Made by a program: the position numbers and the translations under genes. The notes beneath the pieces were generated by a model that made no database searches, was not told the origin of the DNA, and was given only the letters and a program-made list of their open reading frames with translations. From Thermoanaerobaculia bacterium (GTDB lineage Bacteria; Acidobacteriota; Thermoanaerobaculia; Multivoradales; Multivoraceae): a stretch of 64,000 nt of DNA. The stretch is from NCBI GenBank assembly GCA_963664405.1, contig OY761158.1:2144001-2208000 (forward strand). The letters run 5' to 3'. Of the stretch, positions 27,539-64,000 are shown piece after piece (position 1 is the first letter of the stretch; every line of letters starts with the position of its first letter).

Positions 27539-27619
27539 GAGAACCCTCCCCGGCAACCTCTCATCTCGCGAGGCCGGCGACGGGAAGCGAGTGTATACTG
27601 AGATGGCGAGGTGACTTTC

Positions 27620-28027
27620 ATGGGAACAAGGCTCGTCTTCGCGGTTGTCGGCTTCGGCATCCTGCTGGCTGCGGGACCCGTGCTGGCGCATCATGCGTTT
27701 TCGGCCGAATTCGACGCGAACAGGCCGCTTCAGCTACACGGCACCGTCACGAAAACGGAGTGGATAAACCCCCACTCGTGGATTCACATCGATGTGGAAG
27801 GCCCAGACGGCCAGGCGGTGAGTTGGGCCATTGAATTGGGCGCCCCGAACCGGTTGATTAGGCGGGGCCTGAACAAGAATTCGGTCCCGGTTGGCACGGA
27901 ACTGGTCATCAATGGCTTTGCTGCCAAGGACGGATCCAACACAGCGAACGGCAGGGACATCGCGTTGCCCGATGGGTCAACGTTCTTTGTGGGGTCGTCT
28001 GGCACTGGCGCTCCCGATGGGCGATAA
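27620..28027 (+). CDS. DUF6152 family secreted protein
   Basis: Signal peptide ending VLA-HHAFSAEFD; WINPHSWI. Confidence 0.8.
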   Translation: MGTRLVFAVVGFGILLAAGPVLAHHAFSAEFDANRPLQLHGTVTKTEWINPHSWIHIDVEGPDGQAVSWAIELGAPNRLIRRGLNKNSVPVGTELVINGFAAKDGSNTANGRDIALPDGSTFFVGSSGTGAPDGR

Positions 28028-28155
28028 GCAGGGTTGGGATCGCTGAACGGGTTCGTTCAATCTCACCATAGTCCGTCTGGACGCCAGGATGCTGCCGGAT
28101 TTGTTGGCCTGTGACCGGAGCACGTCCACTGAAAGGAAAAAAGGAGGGCTTGGGG

Positions 28156-30336
28156 ATGAGACGGCACACACGGGTCCTGGTGGCCGCGACGCTGACGGTC
28201 ACGTGGCTCTCGGCGGCGGCGGTCGAGGCGCAGCAGGGCGCGGTCGGCGGCGAGTGGCGCCACTACGCCGGCGACATGTGGGGCACGAAGTACTCGCCGC
28301 TCGATCAGATCACCGCGGAGAACTTCGGCGAGCTCGAGGTGGCCTGGCGCTGGCGCACCGCCGACTCCCATCTCCCGTTCGAGGATGAGCACGGGATCTC
28401 GCTCATCCCCTCCGAGACGCTCTTCGACCGGCTCGAGGCGGCCGAGCCAGACCGCTGGGTGACGCGGCCGAATATTGCATTGCAATCAATCTTCTTCGAG
28501 GCGGTCCCGCTCATGGTCGACGGCGTGCTGTATCTGAGCACCCCGCTCTATCAGGCGGCAGCGATCGATGCCCGGACGGGTGAGACGCGCTGGGTCTACA
28601 ACCCGCGAGTCTACGAGGCCGGCAGCCCGCCGGTCCCTTCGCCCTGGAAACACCGCGGGGTGGCCTACTGGGATAACGGGGGCGAGGCGCGGATCTTCTG
28701 GGGCACGGGCGACGGCTATCTGACCGCCGTCGACGCGAAGACCGGCCTGCTCGCCACCGGGTTCGGCGACAACGGGCGCGTCAGTCTGGAAGAGGGCCTC
28801 CCGCGGGCTCGCGAGATCCCCGCAGCCGCCCGCCCCATCGCGGGCCGCCCGGCTCGCGAGAACCCCAGCGGGCTGCCTTACCCGTCCCGGTCAGCTCCGC
28901 TGATCGTGGGTGACACGATCATCATCGGCTCACCCTCGACAATCCACGACCAGGTCGTCACGAAGGAGAGCACGCCGGGGTTCGCGCGCGCCTACGACGC
29001 GCGCACCGGGCGGCACAAGTGGGACTTCCACAACGTGCCACAGAGCGCCGATGAGTTCGGGGCCGACACCTGGCAGAACGAGTCGTGGCGCTACTCGGGC
29101 AATACGAATATCTGGGGGCACATCACGGTGGACCCCGAGCTCGGCTACGTCTATCTGCCGACGAGCACCCCGACCTCCGACAACTGGGGCGGCGAGCGGC
29201 CTGGCGACAACCTCTTTGCGGGGAGTCTGGTTTGCGTGGATCTGGAGACGGGCGAGCGTGTCTGGCACTTCCAGATGGTGCACCACGTCGTCTGGAACTA
29301 CGACACCCCGACGGGGCCGAACCTGCTCGACATCACCGTTGACGGCCGCCGGGTGAAGGCGGTCGCCCAGGTGACCAAGCAGGGGTTCGTCTACACCTTC
29401 GACCGCGTGACTGGCGAACCAGTCTGGCCGATTGAAGAGCGGCCGGTGGCGACGGACACCGACCTGGAGGGAGAGGTCCTGTCACCGACCCAGCCGTTCC
29501 CGACCAAGCCGGCGCCCTTCGAGTATCAGGGCACCTCGATCGACGACCTAGTCGATTTCACCCCCGAGATCCGCCAGATGGCGGTCGAGGCGGTGGAGGG
29601 GTTCCGGCTCGGCCCGCTGTACACCCCGCACTCGCTGCGCGGCACGATCTTCCGTCCGGGCTCCGTGGGCGCTGCCAGCTGGGGCGGCGCGGCGGTAGAC
29701 CCGGAGACGGGCATTCTCTACGTGCCGTCGCGAAACGTGCACTCCGTCGTGCGGTTTCGCGAGCCCGAGCCAGACGAGGGGTCGAACTTGCGATACCTCG
29801 TCAGCGGGGGCGCCGGGCCGTTCCTGGAGGGGGGGAACCCCCGGCGCCAGCCGCCGATGCCACCGGGGCTGCCGCTCTGGAAGCCGCCCTATTCGCGGAT
29901 GACGGCCATCGACATGAACACCGGCGAGCACCTCTGGATGACGCCGACCGGCAACGGCGACCCAATTCGCGACCACCCCCTGCTGCGCCATCTCGATCTG
30001 CCGCCATTGGGAGGTGAGGTCAACAATTTCGGGCCACTCTTGACGAAGACGCTGCTCATTTACGCGTTGGCTTCCGGTGGCACCGACGATGGTCTCCAAC
30101 TGGTGGCCTACGACAAGGGGTCGGGAGAAGTCCTTGCCGCGGTCGACCTGCCTGGAGGCGCAATCGGGACGCCGAGGACCTACACGCTGAACGTTGCAGC
30201 GGCTCGTGACGAAGTCATACGCGTGGGGGGCGCAGTCGGGACGCCGATGACCTACATGCTGGACGGCCGGCAATACTTAGCACTCACCGTCGGCGGAGAG
30301 ACGCCGGCATTGATCGCGCTCAGGCTGCCCTACTAG
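28156..30336 (+). CDS. PQQ-dependent dehydrogenase-like protein (GDH-type), paralog 1
   Basis: KYSPLDQI, PLMVDGVLY, HRGVAYW, VTKQGFVYTFDR, KPPYSR, TPMTYMLDGRQY. Confidence 0.88.
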   Translation: MRRHTRVLVAATLTVTWLSAAAVEAQQGAVGGEWRHYAGDMWGTKYSPLDQITAENFGELEVAWRWRTADSHLPFEDEHGISLIPSETLFDRLEAAEPDRWVTRPNIALQSIFFEAVPLMVDGVLYLSTPLYQAAAIDARTGETRWVYNPRVYEAGSPPVPSPWKHRGVAYWDNGGEARIFWGTGDGYLTAVDAKTGLLATGFGDNGRVSLEEGLPRAREIPAAARPIAGRPARENPSGLPYPSRSAPLIVGDTIIIGSPSTIHDQVVTKESTPGFARAYDARTGRHKWDFHNVPQSADEFGADTWQNESWRYSGNTNIWGHITVDPELGYVYLPTSTPTSDNWGGERPGDNLFAGSLVCVDLETGERVWHFQMVHHVVWNYDTPTGPNLLDITVDGRRVKAVAQVTKQGFVYTFDRVTGEPVWPIEERPVATDTDLEGEVLSPTQPFPTKPAPFEYQGTSIDDLVDFTPEIRQMAVEAVEGFRLGPLYTPHSLRGTIFRPGSVGAASWGGAAVDPETGILYVPSRNVHSVVRFREPEPDEGSNLRYLVSGGAGPFLEGGNPRRQPPMPPGLPLWKPPYSRMTAIDMNTGEHLWMTPTGNGDPIRDHPLLRHLDLPPLGGEVNNFGPLLTKTLLIYALASGGTDDGLQLVAYDKGSGEVLAAVDLPGGAIGTPRTYTLNVAAARDEVIRVGGAVGTPMTYMLDGRQYLALTVGGETPALIALRLPY

Positions 30337-30359
30337 TCACCCAGAGAAAGGTGGGAAAC

Positions 30360-31502: not shown

Positions 31503-31507
31503 ACCCG

Positions 31508-32461
31508 TCACTTCGCATCAACGTCAACGCCGGTCATGAGCCTGAGGTTACGACCATTGCCCTCGTGACACGCGTACTCCAACAGTTCGTGATCCTCGGG
31601 AGCCCGCATGAACGCGTCGAGCGCGATCGTCCAGGGTCTTGTAAACACTTTCGGATCGTCGATTGTGGCCTCGTAGTGGATCGTATCGGCGTCGGTCAGC
31701 GTGAAGCGTTCCACCACGTGCAAGGCGTCGCTATGGAAGACGCCGTGACCCGTCGAGAGGGCGCTTGCAGGCGCGCCCTCCGGGGCTACCCCACGCGCAA
31801 TCACCCAGGTGTTCTCGGTGAAGTTCGTGACGTCGACGACCAGCGTATCGCCTTCCCAGTGGCCACGCGAATCACCCAACCCCAGGCGTATCTCCGAGCT
31901 GACATGCGGACGCCCATCCAGGGGAATGTAACGGTACTCGTGGTTCGCCTCGTAGAGGATCACCACGTACCCAGGCACCTGCAGAATCTGATACGTGTTG
32001 AACCCCCACGGCAGATTCGCGCGCGGTAGCCCGGCCGACAGACACTTCACTCGCGGATCGAGGTGCGCGAGCTTGTCTTGGTTGGCCATGATCTCTTCCC
32101 GTTTCGCCGCCGCCCACGGTTGCAACGGAATCTTCCCGTCCGGGGGATCCACGACCAGCGGCGTTTCAATGGCAGCGGGCAGCGATGGAGCATCCGGGTC
32201 TGGTTCGAAAAGGCTCGCAGGGGGGGCATCGATAGTGGCACCTTCCGGACGCCACAGTTCGTCCACCGGCGTTTCCACCGGCTGGTGCGCGCCGCGGTCC
32301 CAGGGACCTCGCAAGTCCGGGTCGCCCCACGGTGTGCGTGGAGACGTATAGGCCTCGCCTTGGGCAGCTTCGCCGGAGGCTTCAGCGACGACAAGCGGCA
32401 CTAGCGCCGCGAACGCCACGGCGGTGAGGAGACCGAGCGGAGCGAAGGACCGACGTATCAC
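31508..32461 (-). CDS. Secreted hypothetical protein (WEGDTLVV family)
   Basis: Signal peptide; RTPWGDPDLRG, GDSRGHWEGDTLVV, EYACHEGN. Confidence 0.8.
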   Translation of the reverse strand: MIRRSFAPLGLLTAVAFAALVPLVVAEASGEAAQGEAYTSPRTPWGDPDLRGPWDRGAHQPVETPVDELWRPEGATIDAPPASLFEPDPDAPSLPAAIETPLVVDPPDGKIPLQPWAAAKREEIMANQDKLAHLDPRVKCLSAGLPRANLPWGFNTYQILQVPGYVVILYEANHEYRYIPLDGRPHVSSEIRLGLGDSRGHWEGDTLVVDVTNFTENTWVIARGVAPEGAPASALSTGHGVFHSDALHVVERFTLTDADTIHYEATIDDPKVFTRPWTIALDAFMRAPEDHELLEYACHEGNGRNLRLMTGVDVDAK

Positions 32462-32856
32462 CTACTGACCCTCCAGCGATTGCAGGATGAAATCGACGCA
32501 GTCGTACTCCAGGAGCTGAAGTCCCTGTTCCACGCGCCGATACAGCGGCATCCTCATCTTCCAGGGGCGCGTGAACACTTTCGGGTCCTCGATGGTGACC
32601 TCGTACTCGATGTGGTACGGGCTGGTGGGCGTGAAGCGTTCAACCACATGCAAGGCATCGCTATGGAAATTCCCCGCCGCGTCGAACCACGTCCGGTCGA
32701 TGAAATGGGTGGTGTCGACGACCAAGGTGTCTCCCTCCCAATGGCCGCGGGAGTCGCCCATCCAGAAATCATTCGGCAGCGGATGTGGGCTGCCATCCGT
32801 GTAGATGATCCGAACCGCGTGGGCGAACTCGAAGGTCATCACCACGTGGTCCGGCG
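32462..32856 (-). pseudogene. 5'-truncated copy of the 49962-50711 gene
   Basis: Near-identity to 49962-50356 ends at GTCCGGCG. Confidence 0.85.
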
Positions 32857-40143: not shown

Positions 40144-40231
40144 GACCTACATGTTGGACGGCCGGCAATACATCGCGCTCACCGTCGGCGGAGAGACGCC
40201 GGCATTGATCGCGCTCAGACTACCGTCCTGA
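40144..40231 (+). pseudogene. 3' remnant of a fourth PQQ-DH-like gene
   Basis: TYMLDGRQYIALTVGGETPALIALRLP is near-identical to the ends of the three paralogs. Confidence 0.85.
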
Positions 40232-40232
40232 G

Positions 40233-41576
40233 TCACTCGTAATCTGTCGAGCCCAACGACACGGAGATGATCTCCTCGTCGTTTCTCATGTAGACGTGTT
40301 TGTTGGCGTAGGCCGGGTGAACCCAGCTCACGTAACGCAGCTCGCGCCGGTTACCAGGTGGCGACGTGGGCTTGATGAGATGAGTCCGGCTGATTTCCTC
40401 GTAGCCTGACGGGCTCAGTCTGGCGATGATCAAGTCGCCGCGATCGTTATTGATGAACACTAGATCGCCATTCTGGACCAAGAACCCGGACACCCAGCGC
40501 CGTCGTTCGGTGGTCGCTTCCTGCGTTTCCCAGACCCGCTCGCCGGTCTCGGCGTTCAAGCCACGCAGTTGGCCGTAGCTGCAGATGCCGTAGATGTACC
40601 CTCCATCGATGATCGGCGTCGCCAACACGGCGTGCAGCCCGTCGGTCTGAATCTCACTCTTGCTCGTGCCCTTCCAGGCGACCGTGGCGCCGGGTCTCTC
40701 CCGGTCGAGGTTCAGCATCAAGGGTCCGTCGTAGAAGGTCGTGAAGAACAGCTGATCTTTGATCTGTGCCGGCACCGCGATGGTCATCGCGCCACCGACC
40801 GTGTAGGGCTGCCGCCAGTAGAGCTCGCCGCTCACCGGATCGAGTGAGACGATTTCTTCCGGATTCCATACGATGAGCTGCCGCGCGCCACCCGCCTCGA
40901 TAATGATCGGTTGCGCGACGCCGAGGTCCGCTTCGCTGGGCAGGGCACGCCAGAGCTCCTCACCGCTCATCTTGTCGAACACCACCACCCGTGCGTTCTG
41001 TGGGCCGCCGACGAAGCAGATGAGCCGTGGGCCGTCGACCAGCGGCGCGCTGGCAAAGCCCCAGTCGAAACCCCACTGCATCCGATCAACGCCGTAGTCC
41101 TCGGCGTAGTCTTTTCGCCACAGGAGTGCGCCGGTCTCGACATTGAGCGCCGACAGGACGCCGGTGCGCCCCAAGACATAGACGCGGTCCCCATCGACCG
41201 TCGGGGTCGCGCCGGGGCCCGTCTCCCACTGAATCCCGGCGTAGTCTGCGTCCCACTGCTGAGTCCACAAGATGCGACCGGTCGCCTCATCGAGCGCCAG
41301 CGCCCGCTCGATTCCACGCATGCCCTGGGTGGCTTCGAAATCGGTGACAAAGACGCGCCCGTCGAGAACGGCGGGGCCTGCATAACCTGCCTTGATAGGA
41401 GTCCGCCAGAGCGCCTTCAGACCCTCGGCGGGGAACTCTTCCAAGAGCCCGGTCTCGTGCCAGACGCCGAGGCGGCCCTTGCCTCGAAACTCCGGCCAAT
41501 CGTCGCCACGCGTCCCCGTCGCACCCGCCAAGATGGATGTGACACACGCGAGCACCACCGTGAGTCTGCTGGTCAT
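40233..41576 (-). CDS. PQQ-binding-like (BamB-type) beta-propeller protein
   Basis: DDWPEFRG, GYAGPAV, GPGATP, HPAYAN. Confidence 0.85.
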   Translation of the reverse strand: MTSRLTVVLACVTSILAGATGTRGDDWPEFRGKGRLGVWHETGLLEEFPAEGLKALWRTPIKAGYAGPAVLDGRVFVTDFEATQGMRGIERALALDEATGRILWTQQWDADYAGIQWETGPGATPTVDGDRVYVLGRTGVLSALNVETGALLWRKDYAEDYGVDRMQWGFDWGFASAPLVDGPRLICFVGGPQNARVVVFDKMSGEELWRALPSEADLGVAQPIIIEAGGARQLIVWNPEEIVSLDPVSGELYWRQPYTVGGAMTIAVPAQIKDQLFFTTFYDGPLMLNLDRERPGATVAWKGTSKSEIQTDGLHAVLATPIIDGGYIYGICSYGQLRGLNAETGERVWETQEATTERRRWVSGFLVQNGDLVFINNDRGDLIIARLSPSGYEEISRTHLIKPTSPPGNRRELRYVSWVHPAYANKHVYMRNDEEIISVSLGSTDYE

Positions 41577-41595: not shown

Positions 41596-41762
41596 CTAGT
41601 GGACCGTAACCCCCAAACGTTTAGCGCCTGAGCGGCCCTCGCGGCCGATCTCAGCGTTGCGCCTCCTCGACATATTGCCCAATATGCCTGCGTCGGCGCG
41701 CCTTGATCTCGACCACGAATGACTCGCTCAGCCACTAAACGTTTGAGGTTACGGTCCACTAG
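41596..41762. mobile_element. MITE-like element with CTAG ends (second terminal type)
   Basis: Inverted ends CTAGTGGACCGTAACC...AAACGTTTAG; core shared with the 6821 element; supplies the stop codon of the MBL gene. Confidence 0.85.
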
Positions 41763-42708
41763 TCGCCAGCTCACTGTAGATTGCTTCGATGTTCGCTCTC
41801 GCGTGCTCCATGCCGTAGTCCTTGTAGCGCTCGGGCAACTCGAGGGTCGCCGCCGCCTCCTCGACGTTCAGGCCGGCTCGAAAGGCTTTTACCGTGGCCT
41901 CGAGAAAGTCGCGATTGAAGTCGGCGTACTCTTCGAAATCTTCCCACGTCATCAACCCCGTAAATCCCCGGTTCGCCCCTCGCTCCAGGCGACCCCGTCC
42001 AGCGTAGGTCACGGGAGACGAACCGTGGCCCGTGACCACGCGCCTCACGCCCTCGATCTCCGCGACCGCCTTCGCCAAGGTGTCGGGAAAGGCGACGCCG
42101 CTGCCGCCGTTCTGCGTGTCGATGACCGGCGTCGCCTTCGAGGGAAACAGATCCCCCACGTACGCCACCCCCTTGGCGGGGAAAACGACGATGGTGTCAC
42201 CATCGGTGTGGGCGGGGCCAAAGTGGTACAGCTCGATGCGGTCAATGTCCTCGAGCAGCGAGAGCCGGTCGGCGAACGTCTTAGTGGGCAACGACGCCTT
42301 GGTGCCCGCGTAGAGGTCCATCCTGGCCATGTTCGCCTTGGTGTTCTCGTGCGCCACGACCTCGACCGGGGTCCCGAACTCGCTGTTGCTGCCGGCATGA
42401 CCTGGATGCGCATGGGTGTTGATGATGGTCGTCACCTCGAGATCGGTCACTGCCGCGAGTGCGTCCCGTACCGGCCGCCCCCAACCTGGGCGCTTGGTGT
42501 CGATCAACACCACGCCACCGTTGATCTCGTCGATGAAGGCCACCGAGTTACCACCGCCGCCAGAGAGGTGATAGAGGGTATCGAACACACCCAAGGTGTC
42601 GATCCGAACGGTCTTCGGCTCCTGCGCCTGACCGCGCGCTGCGACGGCCGTTAGTGACACCAGTGACAGAGCCACGAGCCTCACTTCTAACCACGCCCAC
42701 CGTTTCAT
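41749..42708 (-). CDS. Secreted MBL-fold metallohydrolase (cyclase-like)
   Basis: NTHAHPGHAG (HxHxDH variant), AHTDGD, VGD, TGHG. Confidence 0.85.
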   Translation of the reverse strand: MKRWAWLEVRLVALSLVSLTAVAARGQAQEPKTVRIDTLGVFDTLYHLSGGGGNSVAFIDEINGGVVLIDTKRPGWGRPVRDALAAVTDLEVTTIINTHAHPGHAGSNSEFGTPVEVVAHENTKANMARMDLYAGTKASLPTKTFADRLSLLEDIDRIELYHFGPAHTDGDTIVVFPAKGVAYVGDLFPSKATPVIDTQNGGSGVAFPDTLAKAVAEIEGVRRVVTGHGSSPVTYAGRGRLERGANRGFTGLMTWEDFEEYADFNRDFLEATVKAFRAGLNVEEAAATLELPERYKDYGMEHARANIEAIYSELATSGP

Positions 42709-42789
42709 GAGAACCCTCCCCGGCAACCTCTCATCTCGCGAGGCCGGCGACGGGAAGCGAGTGTATACTGAGATGGCGAGGTGACTTTC

Positions 42790-43197
42790 ATGGGAACAAG
42801 GCTCGTCTTCGCGGTTGTCGGCTTCGGCATCCTGCTGGCTGCGGGACCCGTGCTGGCGCATCATGCGTTTTCGGCCGAATTCGACGCGAACAGGCCGCTT
42901 CAGCTACACGGCACCGTCACGAAAACGGAGTGGATAAACCCCCACTCGTGGATTCACATCGATGTGGAAGGCCCAGACGGCCAGGCGGTGAGTTGGGCCA
43001 TTGAATTGGGCGCCCCGAACCGGTTGATTAGGCGGGGCCTGAGCAAGAATTCGGTCCCGGTTGGCACGGAACTGGTCATCAATGGCTTTGCTGCCAAGGA
43101 CGGATCCAACACAGCGAACGGCAGGGACATCGCGTTGCCCGATGGGTCAACGTTCTTTGTGGGGTCGTCTGGCACTGGCGCTCCCGATGGGCGATAA
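42790..43197 (+). CDS. DUF6152 family secreted protein
   Basis: One amino-acid difference (N/S) from the 27620 copy. Confidence 0.8.
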   Translation: MGTRLVFAVVGFGILLAAGPVLAHHAFSAEFDANRPLQLHGTVTKTEWINPHSWIHIDVEGPDGQAVSWAIELGAPNRLIRRGLSKNSVPVGTELVINGFAAKDGSNTANGRDIALPDGSTFFVGSSGTGAPDGR

Positions 43198-43231
43198 GCA
43201 GGGTTGGGATCGCTGAAGGGGTTCGTTGGGG

Positions 43232-45379
43232 GTGAGACGGCACACACGGGTCCTGGTGGCCGCGACGCTGACGGTCACGTGGCTCTCGGCGGCGGCGGTC
43301 GAGGCGCAGCAGGGCGCGGTCGGCGGCGAGTGGCGCCACTACGCCGGCGACATGTGGGGCACGAAGTACTCGCCGCTGGATCAGATCACCGCGGAGAACT
43401 TCGGCGAGCTCGAGGTGGCCTGGCGCTGGCGCATCGCCGACCTCCTTCTCCCGTTCGAGGATGAGCACGGGATCTCGCTCATCCCTTCCGAGACGCTCTT
43501 CGACCGGCTCGAGGCGGCCGAGCCGGACCGCTGGAACGACCCGTTCAACCTGCCCCCGCAGCGCCCGGATATCGCATTGCAGTCAAACCTCTTCGAGGCG
43601 GTCCCGCTCATGGTCGACGGCGTGCTGTATCTGAGCACCCCGCTCTATCAGGCGGCGGCGGTCGATGCCCGCACGGGTGAGACGCTCTGGATCTACAACC
43701 CGCGAGTCTACGAGGCCCGCCCGGCGGCTCCTGCGCCCTGGATGCACCGCGGGGTGGCCTACTGGGAGAACGGGGGCGAGGCGCGGATCTTCTGGGGCAC
43801 GGGCAACGGCTATCTGACGGCCGTGGATGCGAAGACCGGGCTGCTCGCCACCGGGTTCGGCGACAACGGGCGCGTCAGTCTGGAGGACGGCCTGCCGCGG
43901 GCTCGCGACAACCCCACCGGGCTGCCTTACCCGTCGCGGTCAGCTCCGCTGATCGTGGGTGACACGATCATCATCGGCGCACCCTCGACCATCCACGACT
44001 TAGTCGTCACGAAGGAGAACACGCCGGGGTTCGTGCGCGCCTACGACGCGCGCACCGGGCGGCACAAGTGGGACTTCCACAACGTGCCGCAGAGCGCCGA
44101 CGAGTTCGGGGCCGACACCTGGCAGGACGAGTCGTGGCGCTACTCGGGCCACACGAATGCCTGGGGGAACCTTACGGCGGACCCCGAGCTCGGCTACGTC
44201 TATCTGCCGACGAGCACGCCGACCTCCGACTTCTATGGCGGCGAGCGGGTCGGCGACAACCTTTTTGCGGAGAGTCTGGTTTGTGTGGACGTGGAGACGG
44301 GCGAGCGAGTCTGGCACTTCCAGATGGTGCATCACGGCCTGTGGAACTACGACACCCCGGCGGGTCCGAACCTGCTCGACATCACCGTTGACGGCCGCCG
44401 AGTGAAGGCGGCCGCCCAGGTGACCAAGCAGGGGTTCGTCTACACCTTCGACCGCGTGACTGGCGAACCGGTCTGGCCGATCGAAGAGCGGTCGGTGCCG
44501 ACGGACACCGACCTGGAGGGAGAGGTGCCGTCACCGACCCAGCCGTTCCCGACCAAACCGGCGCCCTTCGAGTATCAGGGCACCTCGATCGACGACCTGG
44601 TCGATTTCACCCCCGAGATCCGCCAGATGGCGGTCGAGGCGGTGAAGGGGTTCCGGCTCGGCCCGCTGTACACCCCGCACTCGCTGCGCGGCACGATCGT
44701 CCGTCCGGGCGCCTTGGGCGCTGCCAGCTGGGGAGGCGCGGCGGTAGACCCGGAGACGGGCATCCTCTACGTGCCGTCGAAGAACGCGCACGCTGTCTGG
44801 CGCTTTCGCGAGCCCGAGCCGGAGGAGGGGTCGAACTTGCGATACCTCCTCGGCGGGGGCGCGTTTCTAGAGGGGGGGAACCCCCGGCACCAGCCGCCGA
44901 TGCCACCGGGGCTGCCGCTCTGGAAGCCGCCCTATTCGCGGATGACGGCCATCGACATGAACACGGGCGAGCACCTCTGGATGACGCCGACCGGCAACGG
45001 CGACCCGATTCGCGACCACCCCCTGCTGCGCCATCTCGATCTGCCGCCATTGGGAGGTGAGGTCGACAATTTCGGGCCGCTCTTGACGAAGACGCTGCTC
45101 ATTTACGCGTTGTCTTCCGGTGGGACCGACGATGGTCCCCAACTGGTGGCCTACGACAAGGGGTCGGGAGAAGTCCTTGCCGCGGTCGACCTGCCTGGAG
45201 GCGCAATCGGGACGCCGAGGACCTACACGCTGAACATTGGAGCGGCTCGTGGCGAAGCTCGAGACGTGGGGGGCGCAGCCGGGACGCCGATGACCTACAT
45301 GCTGGACGGCCGGCAATACTTAGCACTCACCGTCGGCGGAGAGACGCCGGCATTGATCGCGCTCAGGCTGCCCCGCTGA
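43232..45379 (+). CDS. PQQ-dependent dehydrogenase-like protein, paralog 2
   Basis: Same motifs as paralog 1; GTG start, leader deleted. Confidence 0.85.
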   Translation: MRRHTRVLVAATLTVTWLSAAAVEAQQGAVGGEWRHYAGDMWGTKYSPLDQITAENFGELEVAWRWRIADLLLPFEDEHGISLIPSETLFDRLEAAEPDRWNDPFNLPPQRPDIALQSNLFEAVPLMVDGVLYLSTPLYQAAAVDARTGETLWIYNPRVYEARPAAPAPWMHRGVAYWENGGEARIFWGTGNGYLTAVDAKTGLLATGFGDNGRVSLEDGLPRARDNPTGLPYPSRSAPLIVGDTIIIGAPSTIHDLVVTKENTPGFVRAYDARTGRHKWDFHNVPQSADEFGADTWQDESWRYSGHTNAWGNLTADPELGYVYLPTSTPTSDFYGGERVGDNLFAESLVCVDVETGERVWHFQMVHHGLWNYDTPAGPNLLDITVDGRRVKAAAQVTKQGFVYTFDRVTGEPVWPIEERSVPTDTDLEGEVPSPTQPFPTKPAPFEYQGTSIDDLVDFTPEIRQMAVEAVKGFRLGPLYTPHSLRGTIVRPGALGAASWGGAAVDPETGILYVPSKNAHAVWRFREPEPEEGSNLRYLLGGGAFLEGGNPRHQPPMPPGLPLWKPPYSRMTAIDMNTGEHLWMTPTGNGDPIRDHPLLRHLDLPPLGGEVDNFGPLLTKTLLIYALSSGGTDDGPQLVAYDKGSGEVLAAVDLPGGAIGTPRTYTLNIGAARGEARDVGGAAGTPMTYMLDGRQYLALTVGGETPALIALRLPR

Positions 45380-45487
45380 ATGGGTTCGTTCAATCTCACC
45401 ATAGTCCGTCTGGACGCCGGGATGCTGCCGGATTTGTTAGCCTGTGACCGGAGCACGTCCACTGAAAGGAAAAAGGAGGGCTTGGGG

Positions 45488-47641
45488 ATGAGAGCGCACA
45501 CACGGGTCCTGGTGGCCGTGACGCTCACGCTCACGTGGCTCTCGGCGGCGGCGGTCGAGGCGCAGCAGGGCGCGGTCGGCGGCGAGTGGCGCCACTACGC
45601 CGGCGACATGTGGGGCACGAAGTACTCGCCGCTCGATCAAATCACCGCGGAGAACTTCGGCGAGCTCGAGGTGGCCTGGCGCTGGCGCATCGCCGACTTC
45701 CTTCTCCCGTTCGAGGATGAGCACGGGATCTCGCTCATCCAATCCGAGACGCTCTTCGACCGGCTCGAGGCGGCCGAGCCGGGCCGCTGGAACGACCCGT
45801 TCAACTCGGCCCCGCAGCGCCCGGATATCGCATTGCAGTCAAACTTCTTCGAGGCGGTCCCGCTCATGGTCGACGGCGTGCTGTATCTGAGCACCCCGCT
45901 CTATCAGGCGGCAGCGATCGATGCCCGCACGGGTGAGACGCTCTGGGTCTACAACCCGCGAGCCTACGAGGCCCGCCCGCCGAGCCCTTCGCCCTGGAAA
46001 CACCGCGGGGTGGCCTACTGGGAGAACGGGGGCGAGGCGCGGATCTTCTGGGGTACGGGCAACGGCTATCTGACGGCCGTCGACGCCAAGACCGGGCTGC
46101 TCGCCACCGGGTTCGGCGACAACGGGCGCGTCAGTCTGGAGGAGGGCCTGCCGCGGGCTCGCGACAACCCCAGCGGGCTGCCTTACCCGTCGTGGTCAGC
46201 TCCTCTCGTCGTGGGTGACACGATCATCATCGGCGCACCCTCGACCATCCACGACTTTGTCGTCACCAAGGAGAGCACGCCGGGGTTCGTGCGCGCCTAC
46301 GACGCGCGCACCGGGCGGCACAAGTGGGACTTCCACAACGTGCCGCAGAGCGCCGACGAGTTCGGGGCCGACACCTGGCAGAACGAGTCGTGGCGCTACT
46401 CGGGCCACACGAATGCCTGGGGGAACCTTACGGCGGACCCCGAGCTCGGCTACGTCTATCTGCCGACGAGCACGCCGACCTCCGACTTCTATGGCGGCGA
46501 GCGGGTCGGCGACAACCTTTTTGCGGAGAGTCTGGTTTGTGTGGACGTGGAGACGGGCGAGCGCGTCTGGCACTTCCAGATGGTGCATCACGGCCTGTGG
46601 AACTACGACACCCCGGCGGGTCCGAACCTGCTCGACATCACCGTTGACGGCCGCCGAGTGAAGGCGGCCGCCCAGGTGACCAAGCAGGGGTTCGTCTACA
46701 CCTTCGACCGCGTGACTGGCGAACCGGTCTGGCCGATCGAAGAGCGGCCGGTGCCGACGGACACCGACCTGGAGGGAGAGGTGCCGTCACCGACCCAGCC
46801 GTTCCCCACCAAGCCGGCGCCCCTCGAGTATCAGGGCACCTCGATCGACGACCTGGTCGATTTCACCCCCGAGATCCGCCAGATGGCGGTCGAGGCGGTG
46901 AAGGGGTTCCGGCTCGGCCCGCTGTACACCCCGCACTCGCTGCGCGGCACGATCGTCCGTCCGGGCGGCTTGGGCGCCGCCAGCTGGGGAGGCGCGGCGG
47001 TAGACCCGGAGACGGGCATCCTCTACGTGCCGTCGAAGAACGTGCACTCCGTCGTGCGGTTTCGCGAGCCCGAGCCGGAGGAGGGGTCGAACTTGCGATA
47101 CCTCGCCAGCGGGGGCGACGAGCGGTTCCTGGAGGGGGGAAACCCTCGGCACCAGCCGCCGATGCCACCGGGGCTGCCGCTCTGGAAGCCGCCCTATTCG
47201 CGGATGACGGCCATCGACATGAACACGGGCGAGCACCTCTGGATGACGCCGACCGGCAACGGCGACCCGATTCGCAACCACCCCCTGCTGCGCCATCTCG
47301 ATCTGCCGCCATTGGGAGGTGAGGTCGACAATTTCGGGCCGCTCTTGACGAAGACGCTGCTCATTTACGCGTTGTCTTCCGGTGGAACCGACGATGGTCC
47401 CCAACTGGTGGCCTACGACAAGGGGTCGGGAGAAGTCCTTGCCGCGGTCGACCTGCCTGGAGGCGCAATCGGGACACCGAGGACCTTCACGCTGAACATG
47501 GCGGCGGCTCGTTTCGAAAGTCGAGACGTGGGGGGTGCAGCCGGGACGCCGATGACCTACATGCTGGACGGCCGGCAATACTTAGCACTCACCGTCGGCG
47601 GAGAGACGCCGGCATTGATCGCGCTCAGGCTGCCCTACTAG
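45488..47641 (+). CDS. PQQ-dependent dehydrogenase-like protein, paralog 3
   Basis: Same motifs as paralog 1; AAGGAGG RBS. Confidence 0.88.
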   Translation: MRAHTRVLVAVTLTLTWLSAAAVEAQQGAVGGEWRHYAGDMWGTKYSPLDQITAENFGELEVAWRWRIADFLLPFEDEHGISLIQSETLFDRLEAAEPGRWNDPFNSAPQRPDIALQSNFFEAVPLMVDGVLYLSTPLYQAAAIDARTGETLWVYNPRAYEARPPSPSPWKHRGVAYWENGGEARIFWGTGNGYLTAVDAKTGLLATGFGDNGRVSLEEGLPRARDNPSGLPYPSWSAPLVVGDTIIIGAPSTIHDFVVTKESTPGFVRAYDARTGRHKWDFHNVPQSADEFGADTWQNESWRYSGHTNAWGNLTADPELGYVYLPTSTPTSDFYGGERVGDNLFAESLVCVDVETGERVWHFQMVHHGLWNYDTPAGPNLLDITVDGRRVKAAAQVTKQGFVYTFDRVTGEPVWPIEERPVPTDTDLEGEVPSPTQPFPTKPAPLEYQGTSIDDLVDFTPEIRQMAVEAVKGFRLGPLYTPHSLRGTIVRPGGLGAASWGGAAVDPETGILYVPSKNVHSVVRFREPEPEEGSNLRYLASGGDERFLEGGNPRHQPPMPPGLPLWKPPYSRMTAIDMNTGEHLWMTPTGNGDPIRNHPLLRHLDLPPLGGEVDNFGPLLTKTLLIYALSSGGTDDGPQLVAYDKGSGEVLAAVDLPGGAIGTPRTFTLNMAAARFESRDVGGAAGTPMTYMLDGRQYLALTVGGETPALIALRLPY

Positions 47642-47832
47642 GTATCTCCAATAGCTCACATTCGTGACGTATGAATCAAGTTTTACTCGAAGCGAGATCG
47701 TGCCGGGCGTTCAGGGTGCCCCAGATCGCCGCAGCGCAGGAGCGAGGTGACGCAGGCGTACTTTCGCGTACGTCGGAGGAGCCGAGCGACGAGCACGCGG
47801 TGAGGTGGGGTGCCCTGGACGCCCGGCCCTAG
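47638..47832 (+). mobile_element. CTAG-duplicating insertion element
   Basis: Absent from the paralogous site at 30333-30336, which has a single CTAG; 22-bp stem 47702-47723/47806-47827 surrounds the conserved core. Confidence 0.88.
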
Positions 47833-47855
47833 TCAACCAGAGAAAGGTGGACAAC

Positions 47856-48998
47856 ATGCGTAAACTCCGATCGATCTTGGCGAGCCGAGGCTGGCTGGCG
47901 CTCCTGTCCCTACCGCTGGTGGCTCTCGTGGCCTGTGGCGGTGGCGCTCCGGCGGTGGAGGAGGAGATGGGCGCGATGGATGACGGGAAGATGAGCGACT
48001 GGGTGGATCGGCCGCCGCTGCCGAATCCGACCGGCGAGGTGATCTTGAACTGGGCGCCGTTCCCCGACGGGCGGGTCTGGGGTTCGACCGCGGGCATCGA
48101 TATCGGTCCCGACGGGCACGTCTGGGCCTATGACCGGTGCGGTGGCGGTCTGGACGGTGGGTGCGAGTCCAACCCGGAGCTCGATCCGATCTTCAAATTC
48201 GACAGGAACACGGGTGAGATCCTGACCAGCTTCGGGGCCGGACTGTTCGTAACACCGCACGGTTTCCACGTGGACAGCGACGGCAACGTATGGGCGACCG
48301 ACTTCGCAGGCAACGAGGCCGGGACCAAGGGGCATCAGGTGATCAAGTTCAGCCCGGAGGGCGAGGTCCTGCTGCGACTCGGCGAGGCGGGGGTGCCCGG
48401 AAGCGGCCCTGGCCAGCTCAACCAGCCGTGCGACGTCATTACGGCGCCCAACGGCGACATCTTCGTGTCTGACGGACATAGCGGCCAGGCGCCCGATCCG
48501 CCTCCGGGCGCGACCGGACGGATCCTCAAGTTCGACAGCGAGGGCGGCTTCATCAAGGAGTGGGGTGAAATCGGCTTCCGGCCCGGTCAGTTTCGCACGC
48601 CGCACGCACTGGAGTTCGACTCGCAGGGCCGTCTGTATGTCGCGGACCGTGGCAATGACCGGATCCAAATCTTCGACCAGGACGGCAACCTCCTCGACAC
48701 CTACATGCAGTACAGCCGGATCAGTGGCCTGTTCATAACCGCCGACGACACGCTCTATGCGATCGCTTCGGACTCGGGCCCAAACAGCCACCCCGGCTGG
48801 AAGAACGGTGTGCGGATCGGACCGGCCGGGGAGGACCGGCTGACCGGCTTCGTGCCGCCGCACCCTCACGACGTTCACGTGCAAGGGGTCGCCGGTGAGG
48901 GTGTCGCCGTGGATGAGGTCGGCAACATCTATGCGGCGGAAGGGCCGGACTCCCGTCCCACCGCCGGCGGCGGCATCACGAAATACGTCGCGAACTAG
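47856..48998 (+). CDS. NHL-repeat (PAL-like) lipoprotein
   Basis: Near-identical to 30360-31502. Confidence 0.85.
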   Translation: MRKLRSILASRGWLALLSLPLVALVACGGGAPAVEEEMGAMDDGKMSDWVDRPPLPNPTGEVILNWAPFPDGRVWGSTAGIDIGPDGHVWAYDRCGGGLDGGCESNPELDPIFKFDRNTGEILTSFGAGLFVTPHGFHVDSDGNVWATDFAGNEAGTKGHQVIKFSPEGEVLLRLGEAGVPGSGPGQLNQPCDVITAPNGDIFVSDGHSGQAPDPPPGATGRILKFDSEGGFIKEWGEIGFRPGQFRTPHALEFDSQGRLYVADRGNDRIQIFDQDGNLLDTYMQYSRISGLFITADDTLYAIASDSGPNSHPGWKNGVRIGPAGEDRLTGFVPPHPHDVHVQGVAGEGVAVDEVGNIYAAEGPDSRPTAGGGITKYVAN

Positions 48999-49007
48999 GC
49001 CGTCCCG

Positions 49008-49961
49008 TCACTTCGCATCAACGTCAACGCCGGTCATGAGCCTGAGGTTACGACCATTGCCCTCGTGACACGCGTACTCCAACAGTTCGTGATCCTCGGG
49101 AGCCCGCATGAACGCGTCGAGCGCGATCGTCCAGGGTCTTGTAAACACTTTCGGATCGTCGATTGTGGCCTCGTAGTGGATCGTATCGGCGTCGGTCAGC
49201 GTGAAGCGTTCCACCACGTGCAAGGCGTCGCTATGGAAGACGCCGTGACCCGTCGAGAGGGCGCTTGCAGGCGCGCCCTCCGGGGCTACCCCACGCGCAA
49301 TCACCCAGGTGTTCTCGGTGAAGTTCGTGACGTCGACGACCAGCGTTTCGCCTTCCCAGTGGCCACGCGAATCACCCAACCCCAGGCGTATCTCCGAGCT
49401 GACATGCGGACGCCCATCCAGGGGAATGTAGCGGTACTCGTGGTTCGCCTCGTAGAGGATCACCACGTACCCAGGCACCTGCAGAATCTGATACGTGTTG
49501 AACCCCCACGGCAGATTCGCGCGCGGTAGCCCGGCCGACAGACACTTCACTCGCGGATCGAGGTGCGCGAGCTTGTCTTGGTTGGCCATGATCTCTTCCC
49601 GTTTCGCCGCCGCCCACGGTTGCAACGGAATCTTCCCGTCCGGGGGATCCACGACCAGCGGCGTTTCAATGGCAGCGGGCAGCGGTGGAGCATCCGGGTC
49701 TGGTTCGAAAAGGCTCGCAGGGGGGGCATCGATAGTGGCACCTTCCGGACGCCACAGTTCGTCCACCGGCGTTTCCACCGGCTGGGCCGCGCCGCGGTCC
49801 CAGGGACCTCGCAAGTCCGGGTCGCCCCACGGTGTGCGTGGAGACGTATAGGCCTCGCCTTGGGCGGCTTCGCCGGAGGCTTCAGCGACGACAAGCGGCA
49901 CTAGCGCCGCGAACGCCACGGCGGTGAGGAGACCGAGCGGAGCGAAGGACCGACGTATCAC
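49008..49961 (-). CDS. Secreted hypothetical protein (WEGDTLVV family)
   Basis: Near-identical to 31508-32461. Confidence 0.8.
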   Translation of the reverse strand: MIRRSFAPLGLLTAVAFAALVPLVVAEASGEAAQGEAYTSPRTPWGDPDLRGPWDRGAAQPVETPVDELWRPEGATIDAPPASLFEPDPDAPPLPAAIETPLVVDPPDGKIPLQPWAAAKREEIMANQDKLAHLDPRVKCLSAGLPRANLPWGFNTYQILQVPGYVVILYEANHEYRYIPLDGRPHVSSEIRLGLGDSRGHWEGETLVVDVTNFTENTWVIARGVAPEGAPASALSTGHGVFHSDALHVVERFTLTDADTIHYEATIDDPKVFTRPWTIALDAFMRAPEDHELLEYACHEGNGRNLRLMTGVDVDAK

Positions 49962-50711
49962 CTACTGACCCTCCAGCGATTGCAGGATGAAATCGACGCA
50001 GTCGTACTCCAGGAGCTGAAGTCCCTGTTCCACGCGCCGATACAGCGGCATCCTCATCTTCCAGGGGCGCGTGAACACTTTCGGATCCTCGATGGTGACC
50101 TCGTACTCGATGTGGTACGGGCTGGTGGGCGTGAAGCGTTCAACCACATGCAAGGCATCGCTATGGAAATTCCCCGCCGCGTCGAACCACGTCCGGTCGA
50201 TGAAATGGGTGGTGTCGACGACCAAGGTGTCTCCCTCCCAATGGCCGCGGGAGTCGCCCATCCAGAAATCATTCGGCAGCGGATGTGGGCTGCCATTCGT
50301 GTAGATGATCCGAACCGCGTGGGCGAACTCGTAGGTCATCACCACCTGGTCCGGCGTCTGAAGGATCTGAAATGGGAACGGCATGTAGGTGATACGCGGG
50401 ACACCTGGTAGATAGCACTTGCGAACCGGGTCGGCGGTGAGCCGATTCTCGTAGTTTTCCTGTTTTCGCGCCTCCGCCCAGGGCTGATACGGGATGTCGT
50501 TGCCCTCCACCACGCTCAGACCGGCGGGAACACCGTCCTGCGCATTGTGGTGCTGAAGGTCCCACGCGGCCGTCGTGAGGACCTGCCAGATCCCGCTCAG
50601 GTCGGGTCTGTCGTCGCTCGTGCGCGGTCCTTCGTAGCCTGACGCCGGGGCCGCTAGTGACACCAGTGACAGAGCCACGAGCCTCACTTCTAACCTCACC
50701 CACCGTTTCAT
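49962..50711 (-). CDS. Secreted hypothetical protein (WEGDTLVV family)
   Basis: PDLSGIW, CYLPGVPR, GDSRGHWEGDTLVV, EYDC; start MKRWV after GGAGG. Confidence 0.8.
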   Translation of the reverse strand: MKRWVRLEVRLVALSLVSLAAPASGYEGPRTSDDRPDLSGIWQVLTTAAWDLQHHNAQDGVPAGLSVVEGNDIPYQPWAEARKQENYENRLTADPVRKCYLPGVPRITYMPFPFQILQTPDQVVMTYEFAHAVRIIYTNGSPHPLPNDFWMGDSRGHWEGDTLVVDTTHFIDRTWFDAAGNFHSDALHVVERFTPTSPYHIEYEVTIEDPKVFTRPWKMRMPLYRRVEQGLQLLEYDCVDFILQSLEGQ

Positions 50712-63633: not shown

Positions 63634-64000
63634 GGAGCCGGTTGCGCTGCACCCGCGGTGCGATCAGACCCCCGTTCGCTTCGCGAACGAGGTGCCACCC
63701 AGATATTCAGGGACGCGGCGATAGGCCCTATTAGACGTAATGGAATGCGTGCTCCCTCTAACAGTGGGCTCGCTACCGATCGAAACTCCAGCATTCCAAG
63801 CTCACGACGGAGCCATGCGAGGTGGAGTGGAGAGGCGCCTCGCGCCTATTCCGATGGAGCGTCGCCGCATTGACTCTGCGGGATGTCGCCGCCCCACGAC
63901 GACCAGAGAAACCTGAAGTTCAGGTCGTCACGAAGGGCAGAGAGGGCGGGAAAGACCCCGGAGGAAAGTCCACAGGCACACACGCCCTCAGTCTCTCGCA

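Follow-up and report, generated by a model that had tools for sequence, protein, structure and literature searches.

The window, the whole stretch of 64,000 nucleotides analysed here, holds two copies of a locally duplicated region, and copy B carries a recent insertion of a small mobile non-coding element: after the duplication, 187 bp entered the CTAG that contains the stop codon of the upstream gene (Table 1). The insert is a non-autonomous mosaic of a 60-nt left module and a 127-nt hairpin; hairpin mini-transposons throughout the class, which form one superfamily, have the latter as their conserved core. Together with a proposed mover of the HUH/IS91 type, stop-codon insertion of a mosaic non-autonomous element is the overall explanation that we consider moderately probable.

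Table 1. Features of the filled and empty sites and of the insert (positions in the window)
Feature	Position	Strand	Remarks
Left CTAG	47638..47641	+	Includes TAG 47639-47641, the stop of ORF 45380..47641
Right CTAG	47829..47832	+	Second target copy, or terminal tetranucleotide belonging to the element
Empty site, paralogous copy A	30333..30336	+	One CTAG, stop of ORF 28111..30336
Upstream gene with stop codon inside the target	45380..47641	+	Tandem paralog B2 of the 717-753-aa gene
Downstream gene	47847..48998	+	Start GTG 47847 or ATG 47856, after GAGAAAGG; the insert now parts the upstream and downstream genes
Left module, 60 nt (GTATCTCCAATAGCTCACATTCGTGACG...)	47642..47701	+	Among the searched genomes, present only in this one
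Hairpin module, 127 nt	47702..47828	+	22-bp outer stem, internal loops with tandem G.A, apical stem-loop; 144.3 bits with model R1
Apical stem-loop GGCGTAC-TTTCGC-GTACGTC	47755..47774	+	Conserved more strongly than any other part throughout the class; shows compensatory changes of G-C/C-G and GTAC/GGAC type

Copy A reads CCCTA-CTAG-TCACCCAGAGAAAGG on the + strand with a single CTAG, whereas in copy B the left CTAG is followed by 187 bp (47642-47828) and then by the second CTAG and TCAACCAGAGAAAGG. Self-BLAST of the window aligns the two copies in a left block (28041-30336 with 45374-47641, 91.3%) and a right block (30333-32856 with 47829-50356, 98.3%), both of which break exactly at the position of the insert and confirm to the base the filled and empty sites described in the earlier note. 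CTAG is rare in the genome (7502 sites observed, 23230 expected from base composition), and its presence at both ends of the insert is therefore not a matter of chance; two flanking CTAGs and one in the empty site are compatible with a 4-bp duplication, a TA duplication, or a target plus the element's own CTAG. The insert is absent from three further paralogous gene ends, of which the most diverged (40144-40275) also has no CTAG, so the ancestral state is empty and the long form of copy B is an insertion. The stop codon of the upstream gene and the ribosome-binding site of the downstream gene are preserved, as expected of the harmless insertion that had been suggested. The nearest other copy of the insert is 96% identical, against 98.3% for the duplicated flanks, and the source copy is therefore not among the copies found. 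A 116-nt contig from public run X7 spans the left junction (47552-47667) with no difference; no informative empty copy-B allele was seen in the public runs, whose contigs on this stretch are short, and the hypothetical empty copy-B junction had no match among metagenome contigs. The single RNA run aligned, X19, does not cover the element, a result that speaks neither for nor against its transcription.

No ORF lies inside the 187-bp insert, as had been claimed, and its ends (GTATCTCC... and, in reverse complement, ...GGCCGGGC) form no terminal inverted repeat (TIR); read as GTATCTCCAATAG... and GGCCGGGCGTCC... (reverse complement), they have GG alone in common. The 22-bp outer stem, in which all three mismatches are G-T pairs on the + strand, and the apical GTAC-TTTCGC-GTAC were likewise found as described. 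A small TCAC-ATTC-GTGA hairpin lies near the left CTAG and the large palindrome abuts the right one. The predicted fold of the insert has -104.3 kcal/mol on the + strand (z = -6.9; none of 200 shuffles as good) and -85.5 kcal/mol on the minus strand (z = -4.3). Judged by their sequence, the left 60 nt appear to be decayed ends of other resident CTAG-bounded elements: the terminus of the left module and the CAATAGCTC motif resemble the ends of a resident 166-bp MITE and of a 2708-bp element with recombinase and IS91-type genes. A simple consensus scan for promoters and terminators over 47450-48000 gave no signal, and Rfam returned nothing beyond chance at E<=10 for this region of the window (best E 6.4).

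BLAST gave 63 matches in the 6.78-Mb genome, which group into about 44 loci. At five unrelated loci the element is present in full length with identical boundaries and 92-100% identity, CTAG lying on the right in all five and on the left in four (CTGG in the remaining one); these copies bear out the view of a mobile, non-autonomous, CTAG-targeting element. CTAG stands immediately 5' of 9 of 15 left ends, with one-letter variants in 3 more, and within 3 nt of the stem at 15 of 20 right ends. Hairpin-only copies have CTAG at the 3' foot only and unrelated left flanks (18 of 20 without significant similarity to the left module); at copy 6120888 the left part is the terminal repeat of the 2.7-kb recombinase and IS91 element. 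At 36 of the 44 loci the 3' neighbour is a convergent gene, and at 25 of the 44 the 3' gene ends no more than 15 nt away; copies are enriched between convergent genes (23/44) and rare between divergent genes (3/44), and both neighbours lie on the opposite strand at 13. The insert resembles a MITE in its size (187 bp, below about 300 bp), non-coding nature and number of loci; TIRs are missing from it and present in relatives with the same core, among them a second family in this genome in which the core lies inside TIR-bearing MITEs (13 TIR pairs). The IS1380-, IS1182-, IS630- and IS91-type elements of the genome all lie between CTAGs.

A longer copy enclosing or adjoining a transposase ORF, which the earlier note had suggested looking for, was sought via left ends, TIR sites and the ends of the 166-bp MITE and was not found. 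No long element carries the left end and the ends of resident insertion sequences differ from it, nothing like a transposase unit lies at the three left-end matches that are not followed by a hairpin, and no ends of the 166-bp MITE pair at distances of 300-6000 bp. The left-end 20-mer had no match in metagenome contigs, and neither TnpB (PF07282) nor PIF/Harbinger (PF13359) had a match in the genome.

Genome searches with a covariance model of the hairpin (R1) gave matches across the order in 46 of 151 genomes and 30 of 64 genera and, at class level, in 16 of 151 genomes at E<=1e-5, 11 of these in other orders. Elsewhere in the class the core is usually internal to MITEs with 16-20-bp TIRs, IS1380-like CC... 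ends and CTAG/YTAR flanks; the TIRs begin CC(T/C)G, and the flank variants TTAG and CTAA fit YTAR. In one other genome (G053), TIR matches number 48 in forward and 47 in reverse orientation, mostly spaced by about 163 nt, and control matches are absent; none of its 12 unpaired TIR sites encloses a transposase-sized unit. Other orders show other TIRs, and across the class at least five unrelated types of TIR enclose the conserved core. The insert is thus not of a kind without relatives, and the reported lack of TIRs holds for it and its subfamily only, the usual members of the wider family being TIR-bearing MITEs with the same core. Of the refuting outcome named in the earlier note, a MITE family with its transposase, the family has come to light, though no transposase could be tied to it: the 59 ORFs beside hairpins at 27 loci of relatives include no transposase and one phage-type integrase. 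The left module is absent from 40 relatives, whose matches all lie within query positions 64-183. An exact-pattern scan of species genomes returned 47 stretches, of which 6 are true hairpins and the rest chance matches in GC-rich coding DNA; the core pattern had no match in viral contigs, and Rfam gave nothing relevant at E<=1 for loci of 7 relatives.

Selection maintains folding of the core hairpin on the + strand, be the purpose transposition or a host function. Compensatory changes were seen at 21 of 42 pairs; in an alignment fitted to the model, 93.6% of cells are paired (69.3% in shuffles) and 37 of the 42 pairs change on both sides. Paired columns hold 146 G.U-type and 35 A.C-type cells, and the conserved G.U and tandem G.A pairs exist on one strand only. 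Pairing is kept while the outer stems diverge both in orthologous copies of three species of one genus and in orthologous copies next to lexA in two genera. The suggestion that the element is recognised as ssDNA or RNA is borne out to the extent that this + strand-specific structure fits single-strand recognition, whereas an RNA-based mechanism is unsupported.

We tentatively propose that an IS91-type enzyme, which acts on single strands (HUH), mobilises the TIR-less subfamily in trans. The resident 2.7-kb element, with its IS91-family transposase and XerA-like recombinase, would be the best candidate. It is bounded by CTAG, and the left module resembles its end sequence; GTRTCTCC and CAAKAGCTC are shared with this element and its MITE, a short resemblance (about 8 + 10 nt) judged by eye. 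The hairpin and 3' CTAG would form a palindrome-bearing origin end adjoining the target tetranucleotide, cleavage for the termination end would take place at the left CTAG, and what looks like a 4-bp duplication would be the target plus the element's own terminal tetranucleotide. According to the portion of the literature drawn on here, the IS91 family has distinct origin and termination ends with subterminal palindromes and makes no target duplication, the target tetranucleotide adjoins the origin end with a related cleavage tetranucleotide at the termination end, and transposition can be one-ended (PMC13181058). In layout the insert is similar to IS91, IS801 and IS1294, as that portion describes them, in its two unlike ends, each with a subterminal imperfect palindrome, and in the specific tetranucleotide at one end and a related one at the other; the joining of a constant end to variable sequence and a putative single-strand substrate recall one-ended products of the family (PMC13181058). 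The asymmetric ends with a palindrome at each, and at least 7 intact IS91-family (Y2) genes in the genome, one type of which is CTAG-bounded, support the proposal, as do the hairpin-only copies with CTAG at the 3' foot alone and unrelated left flanks, and copy 6120888 with its borrowed left part; one-sided insertion beside a stop-codon CTAG followed by selection would leave the bias towards 3' genes that is seen (36/44 convergent, 25/44 within 15 nt).

Several observations speak against an IS91-type mover. Across most of the class, elements that contain the hairpin have it in their interior, between proper TIRs, and are flanked on both sides by CTAG/YTAR; such an arrangement is the signature of a DDE transposase and not of IS91. 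The candidate element (2708 bp) has 25-bp TIRs, atypical for IS91, and a companion tyrosine recombinase. Known targets in the source consulted in part are CTTG/GTTC and not CTAG (PMC13181058). IS91-type genes are linked to no hairpin copy, and no copy was found within 1.5 kb of any candidate transposase gene, where unfiltered R1 searches of 25 loci gave a best E of 0.21, from a neighbouring TIR-type MITE. Nor do IS91-type genes co-occur with the hairpin among genomes of the order (14 of 45 hairpin-bearing, 36 of 105 hairpin-free).

As the mover, a DDE transposase of a CTAG/YTAR-targeting family is possible and somewhat unlikely. Working by cut- or copy-and-paste, such an enzyme would genuinely duplicate 4 bp (or TA) of the target and would rely on one recognisable end and a poor stand-in for the other; the candidates are IS1380-like (closest to the TIR-type relatives), IS1182, IS5 and IS630 enzymes. 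ISEcp1, a member of the IS1380 family, accepts alternative right ends that match poorly. The same core lies inside CTAG-flanked TIR MITEs in G053, in the 13 pairs of this genome and in other orders, the CC(T/C)G start and the TTAG/CTAA variants suit YTAR, and the genome holds an IS1380-family element (231.5 bits, cut-off 180) and an IS1182-family element (363.6 bits, cut-off 270), each between CTAGs. However, GG...CC is all that the ends of the subfamily share as an inverted repeat, CTAG accompanies hairpin-only copies on just one side, and the strong orientation bias relative to the abutting gene is unexpected for a symmetric target-duplicating element. Its left end is on no resident insertion sequence (all 16 matches of the left-end 20-mer are small elements or dubious), and an autonomous partner of the TIR type was not found in G053 (0 of 12 unpaired TIR sites). 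The co-occurrence tests covered IS91-type and Y1 genes, DDE families being nearly ubiquitous.

MITEPsy1 of Pseudomonas syringae, an IS5/IS1380-type MITE, offers a close parallel to a DDE-driven element. Like the insert, MITEs of this type are small, non-coding and multi-copy, fold into a long hairpin and enter CTAG, frequently at stop codons, with CTAG then on both sides; MITEPsy1 duplicates CTAG or YTAA (PMC3189936). The relatives of the insert in the class share with this type 16-20-bp TIRs starting with CC. Unlike it, the subfamily in the window has no TIR, one end being a mosaic of other elements' ends and the other the foot of the hairpin, no parent insertion sequence was found, and the internal core is conserved across the class while TIRs differ.

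It is unlikely, on our reckoning, that the core is chiefly useful to the host, with MITEs as mere carriers, and owes its conservation to a host function, be it that of a terminator-like element or one at RNA 3' ends, of a block separating convergent genes, or of a small RNA; such a role is compatible with any mover. In its favour, orthologous sites have retained their copies in different species and genera, with divergence of the outer stem fully compensated, the core is conserved class-wide in elements with unrelated TIR types, copies favour convergent over divergent gene pairs, and folded single strands typically have tandem G.A and G.U pairs like those conserved here. At the 13 loci with both neighbours on the opposite strand, however, ordinary read-through would make the poorly pairing strand; the simple scan gave no promoter- or terminator-like signal, Rfam held no matching family, and avoidance of promoters and persistence of palindromes are also seen in purely selfish MITEs. 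With similarly low confidence we suggest that the rod of about 130 nt may be a functional single-stranded nucleic-acid module, either a portable origin- or termination-like signal for a strand-specific enzyme (HUH or structure-specific recombinase) or a structured RNA, that was captured repeatedly by mini-transposons with at least five unrelated end types; the TIR-less copy in the window would then show that module plus CTAG suffices for mobility.

It is improbable that one of the 13 resident 311-aa Y1 (HUH) proteins mobilises the element, with CTAG as cleavage or target tetranucleotide, in the manner of miniature IS200/IS605 derivatives or of REP/REPIN sequences with a RAYT transposase. The genome gives 13 Y1_Tnp matches with HUH and YxxxQ motifs read by eye in the translations; two gene pairs are nearly identical and the Y1 genes have therefore themselves been recently mobile, and one gene ends ...GGCCGGACC-CTAG. 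A hairpin with strand-specific irregular pairs resembles Y1 substrates in principle (on REP/BIME and Y1 enzymes see PMC3333891). Against this, no hairpin accompanies the Y1 genes, whose flanks have another motif (GGTGCCACCC), the NCBI REP-transposase model scores 34.9 bits (cut-off 80), and TnpB was not found in the genome. IS200/IS605 elements favour the lagging-strand template, whereas the hairpin copies have no replication-orientation bias (15+/12- before and 7+/10- after the skew minimum at 2.74 Mb). The Y1 family occurs in 35 of 45 hairpin-bearing and 71 of 105 hairpin-free genomes, and so does not co-occur with the hairpin, and in 39 of 42 genomes of two hairpin-free families. REP/REPIN-RAYT systems and IS200/IS605 derivatives share with the insert dispersed extragenic imperfect palindromes, a conserved tetranucleotide beside the stem, strand-specific mismatches and long persistence at given sites; REPs are about 20-40 nt long, whereas the hairpin here is 127-133 nt, and the Y1 genes here are multi-copy.

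That no insertion occurred, the long form being older and copy A having lost the insert by precise CTAG-to-CTAG deletion, or gene conversion having moved it, is very improbable. The deletion could have come about by replication slippage stimulated by the palindrome. Long palindromes flanked by 4-bp repeats are a classic substrate of such deletion and copy B has both, and the 96% identity of the nearest other copy, against 98.3% for the flanks, is in its favour; the empty paralogous junctions, the oldest without CTAG, the absence of the left module from all 40 relatives and the identical boundaries at five unrelated loci, which demand insertion events anyway, are against it. A restriction-and-ligation origin of CTAG-bounded fragments is only remotely possible.

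Other candidates were dropped. Integron attC sites have conserved terminal core sites, a variable centre and cassette arrays; here the centre is conserved, the ends vary and the neighbours are unrelated housekeeping genes. The anatomy of the insert, by general knowledge, does not fit a group II intron domain V, an IS110 bridge RNA, an omega RNA, a retron RNA or CRISPR-like arrays.

A CTAG-targeting hairpin MITE as such is of a known, ordinary type; less ordinary is a subfamily that has no inverted ends and yet made a recent, precise insertion. The occurrence of one structured core with different ends throughout a class suggests repeated capture of a useful module or a recognition signal in the hairpin rather than in the ends, and single copies kept at orthologous gene ends (e.g. 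behind lexA) with compensated stem evolution point to function. Should an enzyme recognise the hairpin, the family would offer a tractable model, in a little-studied phylum, of single-strand transposition guided by structure; should recognition lie elsewhere, the family would be a well-documented example of mosaic MITE evolution. Correia/NEMIS elements of Neisseria, RUP of Streptococcus pneumoniae and ERIC of enterobacteria are likewise intergenic imperfect palindromes of 100-190 bp with TA-containing targets and co-transcription with neighbouring genes. Each of these has fixed TIRs and does not extend beyond one genus or family, whereas here one core is found class-wide, paired with different ends.

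Copies A and B of a segmental duplication differ by a 187-bp insert (47642-47828), which lies between two CTAG tetranucleotides in copy B and is absent from copy A, where a single CTAG is common to both paralogous alignments of the window self-comparison (table). Reading both junctions bore out the sequences described for them in an earlier note, and its proposal of an insertion in copy B agrees with three further paralogous gene ends that have no insert. Because these ends are empty and the most diverged paralogous end has no CTAG, the empty state is ancestral and copy B acquired the element. Insertion took place at CTAG, after the duplication. Public sequencing runs cover the region in fragments that reveal neither alleles nor transcripts. 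The gene downstream of the insert retains GAGAAAGG and its start. CTAG sites number 7502 genome-wide against 23230 expected, a three-fold deficit. The central 717-753-aa gene of the duplication is only ~91% identical between copies, against 98.2-98.3% for the flanks, and copy B has it twice in tandem (B1 vs B2, 96.3%), a pattern suggesting that the gene diverges fast or undergoes conversion.

Coordinates and properties of features (w, window; g, genome)
Feature	Position or locus	Remarks
CTAG, copy A	w 30333-30336	...CTGCCCTA-CTAG-TCACCCAGAGAAAGG
Left CTAG, copy B	w 47638-47641	preceded by ...CTGCCCTA; contains TAG stop (47639-47641) of ORF 45380..47641
Left module	w 47642-47701	60 nt
Hairpin	w 47702-47828	127 nt
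Right CTAG, copy B	w 47829-47832	followed by TCAACCAGAGAAAGG
Upstream paralogous blocks	w 28041-30336 vs 45374-47641	91.3% identity; end exactly at insertion point
Downstream paralogous blocks	w 30333-32856 vs 47829-50356	98.3% identity; start exactly at insertion point
Segmental duplication	w 27105-32856 vs 42278-50356
Most diverged paralogous end	w 40144-40275	...TCCTGAGTCAC...
Internal-deletion derivatives	g 2597298, 1499253, 3365250, 4734344	both termini kept
lexA-overlapping hairpins	L118, L119, L121	genomes G108, G080, G102
IS1182-family element		1564 bp; 8-9 copies; between CTAGs
IS1380-family element		TIR CCCCAATTCGCGAA; CTAG-flanked
DDE_Tnp_1-type element, D507 group		flanks ACTAGT
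DDE_Tnp_1-type, C462 group		putative ends
IS630-type genes (two)		defined right end ends in CTAG
2708-bp unit	g 6271542-6275060 (L148), 6758906-6762424 (L149)	25-bp TIRs; CTAG flanks
Y1 gene straddling window end	w 63920-64000	continues to g 2208831
Further Y1 loci (12)	e.g. L041-L050
Tandem arrays of whole hairpins or left arm only	g 5242313-5242870, 5447648-5448090, 3196601-3197233, 6746181-6746427	periods about 109, 219, 254 bp
Hairpins with extra ~100-nt right-arm module	g 2394219-2394450, 3352090-3352322, 468230-468508, 5312049-5312409, 4380668
Other short palindromic/repeated elements	w 6821-6986, 41596-41762, 495-591, 16027-16124, 16152-16248, 16242-16339	self-inverted at 73%; repeats 93-99%

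The window occupies positions 2144001-2208000 of a single 6.78-Mb contig (62.6% G+C), in which BLAST gave 63 matches to the insert, sorted manually into 44 loci. The five full-length copies share 92-100% identity; all start with GTATCTCC and end in ...GGCCGGC(C), with CTAG to the right of all five and to the left of four (CTGG in the fifth), and two adjoin the terminal CTAG of another MITE. The left-end 20-mer has 16 genomic matches (<=4 mismatches), one apparently unrelated, and CTAG stands directly 5' of 9 of the remaining 15, with a one-letter variant at 3 more. Most loci are hairpin-only units, and in 18/20 of these the sequence to the left shows no relation to the left module. Among 20 complete right ends, 15 have CTAG <=3 nt downstream and one has CTAA; two more belong to internal units of a tandem array. 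The element is non-autonomous and of mosaic build, and in one copy (6120888) the left part is the TIR of a 2708-bp unit. Of the mobile CTAG element described earlier, mobility stands, given the five full-length copies with shared ends and CTAG.

In 40 relatives BLAST matches are confined to insert positions 64-183, the left module giving none. Relatives were scanned, as the earlier note had advised, with a covariance model derived from 21 copies, which matched at full length in 46/151 genomes (including the unpublished G157) and 30/64 genera of the order, often in many copies, and at class level in 16/151 genomes (E<=1e-5), 11 of these in other orders. A scan of species genomes gave six true matches, labelled Thermoanaerobaculia, Acidobacteriota, Candidatus Multivoradales and a 'Deltaproteobacteria' bin, and Rfam contains no family matching the hairpin. 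The hairpin is old and widespread.

In several genera the hairpin is enclosed by 16-20-bp terminal inverted repeats (TIRs) beginning with CC(T/C)G, with CTAG on the outside. In the related genome G053 the CTAG+TIR pattern matches 48 times in forward and 47 times in reverse orientation, mostly in pairs ~163 nt apart, vs 0 for a control pattern. The window's own genome holds a second, TIR-type family of 13 pairs (10 of 175-191 bp, 3 collapsed to 49-76 bp) with an apical stem-loop homologous to that of the window element, and other orders have the same core between different TIRs (CCCGGTTTATTCATGAG, GGAGCCTGTCCGAGTAATG, CCCGCATTTCTCACACCG, GGTCCGGAGGAATCATGC) flanked by CTAG, TTAG or TTAA. Since the core occurs elsewhere inside TIR-bearing MITEs, the lack of TIRs noted earlier applies to a derived clade only, namely the subfamily of the window element and its nearest relatives (genomes G045, G036, G132 and others), where (C)TAG directly follows the hairpin foot. 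The window element behaves like a classical MITE but lacks TIRs, and no parent element was found for it.

The fold is conserved and strand-specific. The + strand of the insert reaches -104.3 kcal/mol (z -6.9, 0/200 shuffles as good) and the - strand -85.5 (z -4.3), and RNAalifold predicted 42 pairs, 21 with compensatory changes. When 34 distinct sequences from other genomes are aligned, pairing holds in 93.6% of cells, vs 69.3% in shuffles and 27-44% in slid registers, and 37/42 pairs change on both sides, in an alignment that was fitted to the model, so that covariation counts lean towards it, and that includes one reverse-strand and two weak matches. G.U-type cells exceed A.C-type cells in paired columns (146 vs 35; 75 vs 32 without three always-wobble columns), so the + strand is the one that folds. 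Alignments read by eye suggest that the conserved 'loops' are tandem G.A pairs (AGATCG...CGAGATG; GAGCGA opposite GAGCGA), whose stability is established. In G045 and G132 the 10-14-bp outer stem is particular to each copy, its two arms being complementary to each other. Same-site copies, found in three congeneric species and, at lexA, in two genera, retain the core and its pairing despite diverged outer stems, which indicates long-term selection for folding; it also means that many copies are long-standing residents rather than recent arrivals.

Genes around the 44 loci were called crudely, by an ORF caller with a third-position G+C filter, and the gene 3' of the hairpin is convergent in 36/44 and ends <=15 nt away in 25/44. 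Arrangements are convergent (23), tandem (18, 13 on the opposite strand) or divergent (3), and relatives often show the same arrangement. At the lexA site the hairpin overlaps the last codons, with the stop inside its foot, in both genera. Hairpin orientation is not biased with respect to replication (15+/12- on one side of the skew minimum, 7+/10- on the other). Neighbours are unrelated housekeeping genes, and the 59 ORFs beside hairpins at 27 loci of relatives include one phage-type integrase and no transposase.

The genome is rich in mobile elements between CTAGs. The TIR of the IS1380-family element resembles those of the TIR-type hairpin relatives. At least seven intact IS91-family genes are present, and the 2708-bp unit encodes a XerA/integron-like tyrosine recombinase (299 aa) and an IS91-family transposase (398 aa), its 25-bp inverted repeats and CTAG bounds being atypical of that family. 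An abundant 166-bp MITE has both subterminal regions of this unit, and both have GTRTCTCC and CAAKAGCTC in common with the left module of the insert, a resemblance judged by hand. Thirteen genes, two pairs of them nearly identical, encode 311-aa Y1 (HUH) proteins with an IS200-like domain, HUH and YxxxQ motifs and, at the C terminus, a ~170-aa extension whose last residues are ...FPPGCFPPGLPYVPE; upstream of the genes is a GGTGCCACCC motif. Beyond this genome, the Y1 family occurs in 106/150 genomes of the order, mostly as several copies, but in 0/19 of genus g11. No link to the hairpin was found at 25 candidate-transposase loci, where the best match of the unfiltered model (E 0.21) was a neighbouring TIR-type MITE, and none of the IS1182, IS1380, DDE_Tnp_1, IS630, IS91 or Y1 candidates is tied to it. 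By hand tallies that include G157 and related, non-independent genomes, IS91-type genes do not co-occur with the hairpin (14/45 hairpin-bearing vs 36/105 hairpin-free genomes of the order), and the Y1 family is found in 35/45 vs 71/105.

We tentatively favor mobilization of the TIR-less subfamily by a single-strand, IS91-like route. Its ends are asymmetric, a palindrome lies next to a tetranucleotide, the hairpin end is constant while left parts vary, and orientation relative to the abutting gene is biased, all of which fits described IS91-family behavior (PMC13181058). The bias would follow from one-sided insertion beside a stop-codon CTAG, which is tolerated only from the downstream side. 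The window element is like IS91 derivatives in anatomy, but nothing connects it to an IS91 enzyme. The main rival, a CTAG/YTAR-type DDE transposase using a surrogate end, is possible though doubtful, and draws on the TIR-bearing relatives of the hairpin and on the lax right-end choice of ISEcp1 (IS1380 family). It is also supported by the IS5-type MITEPsy1, which duplicates CTAG or YTAA (PMC3189936). A host function of the hairpin, compatible with any mover, is rather unlikely. Both remaining alternatives are less likely than the IS91-like or DDE routes: Y1 enzymes as mover are improbable, and a precise deletion in copy A, set against the empty paralogous ends, is very improbable. Three features stand out: a strand-specific core conserved across the class, the persistence of that core at orthologous positions, and the movement of a mosaic element despite its lack of TIRs.

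In the hairpin and left-arm tandem arrays, CTAG occurs only after the last unit. The extra right-arm module, which in one of these copies consists of three tandem 73-nt units, resembles a further small element nested within the hairpin. Two other short elements of the window (6821-6986, 41596-41762) correspond to internal sequence of the 166-bp MITE family, for which the genome contains >200 partial matches.
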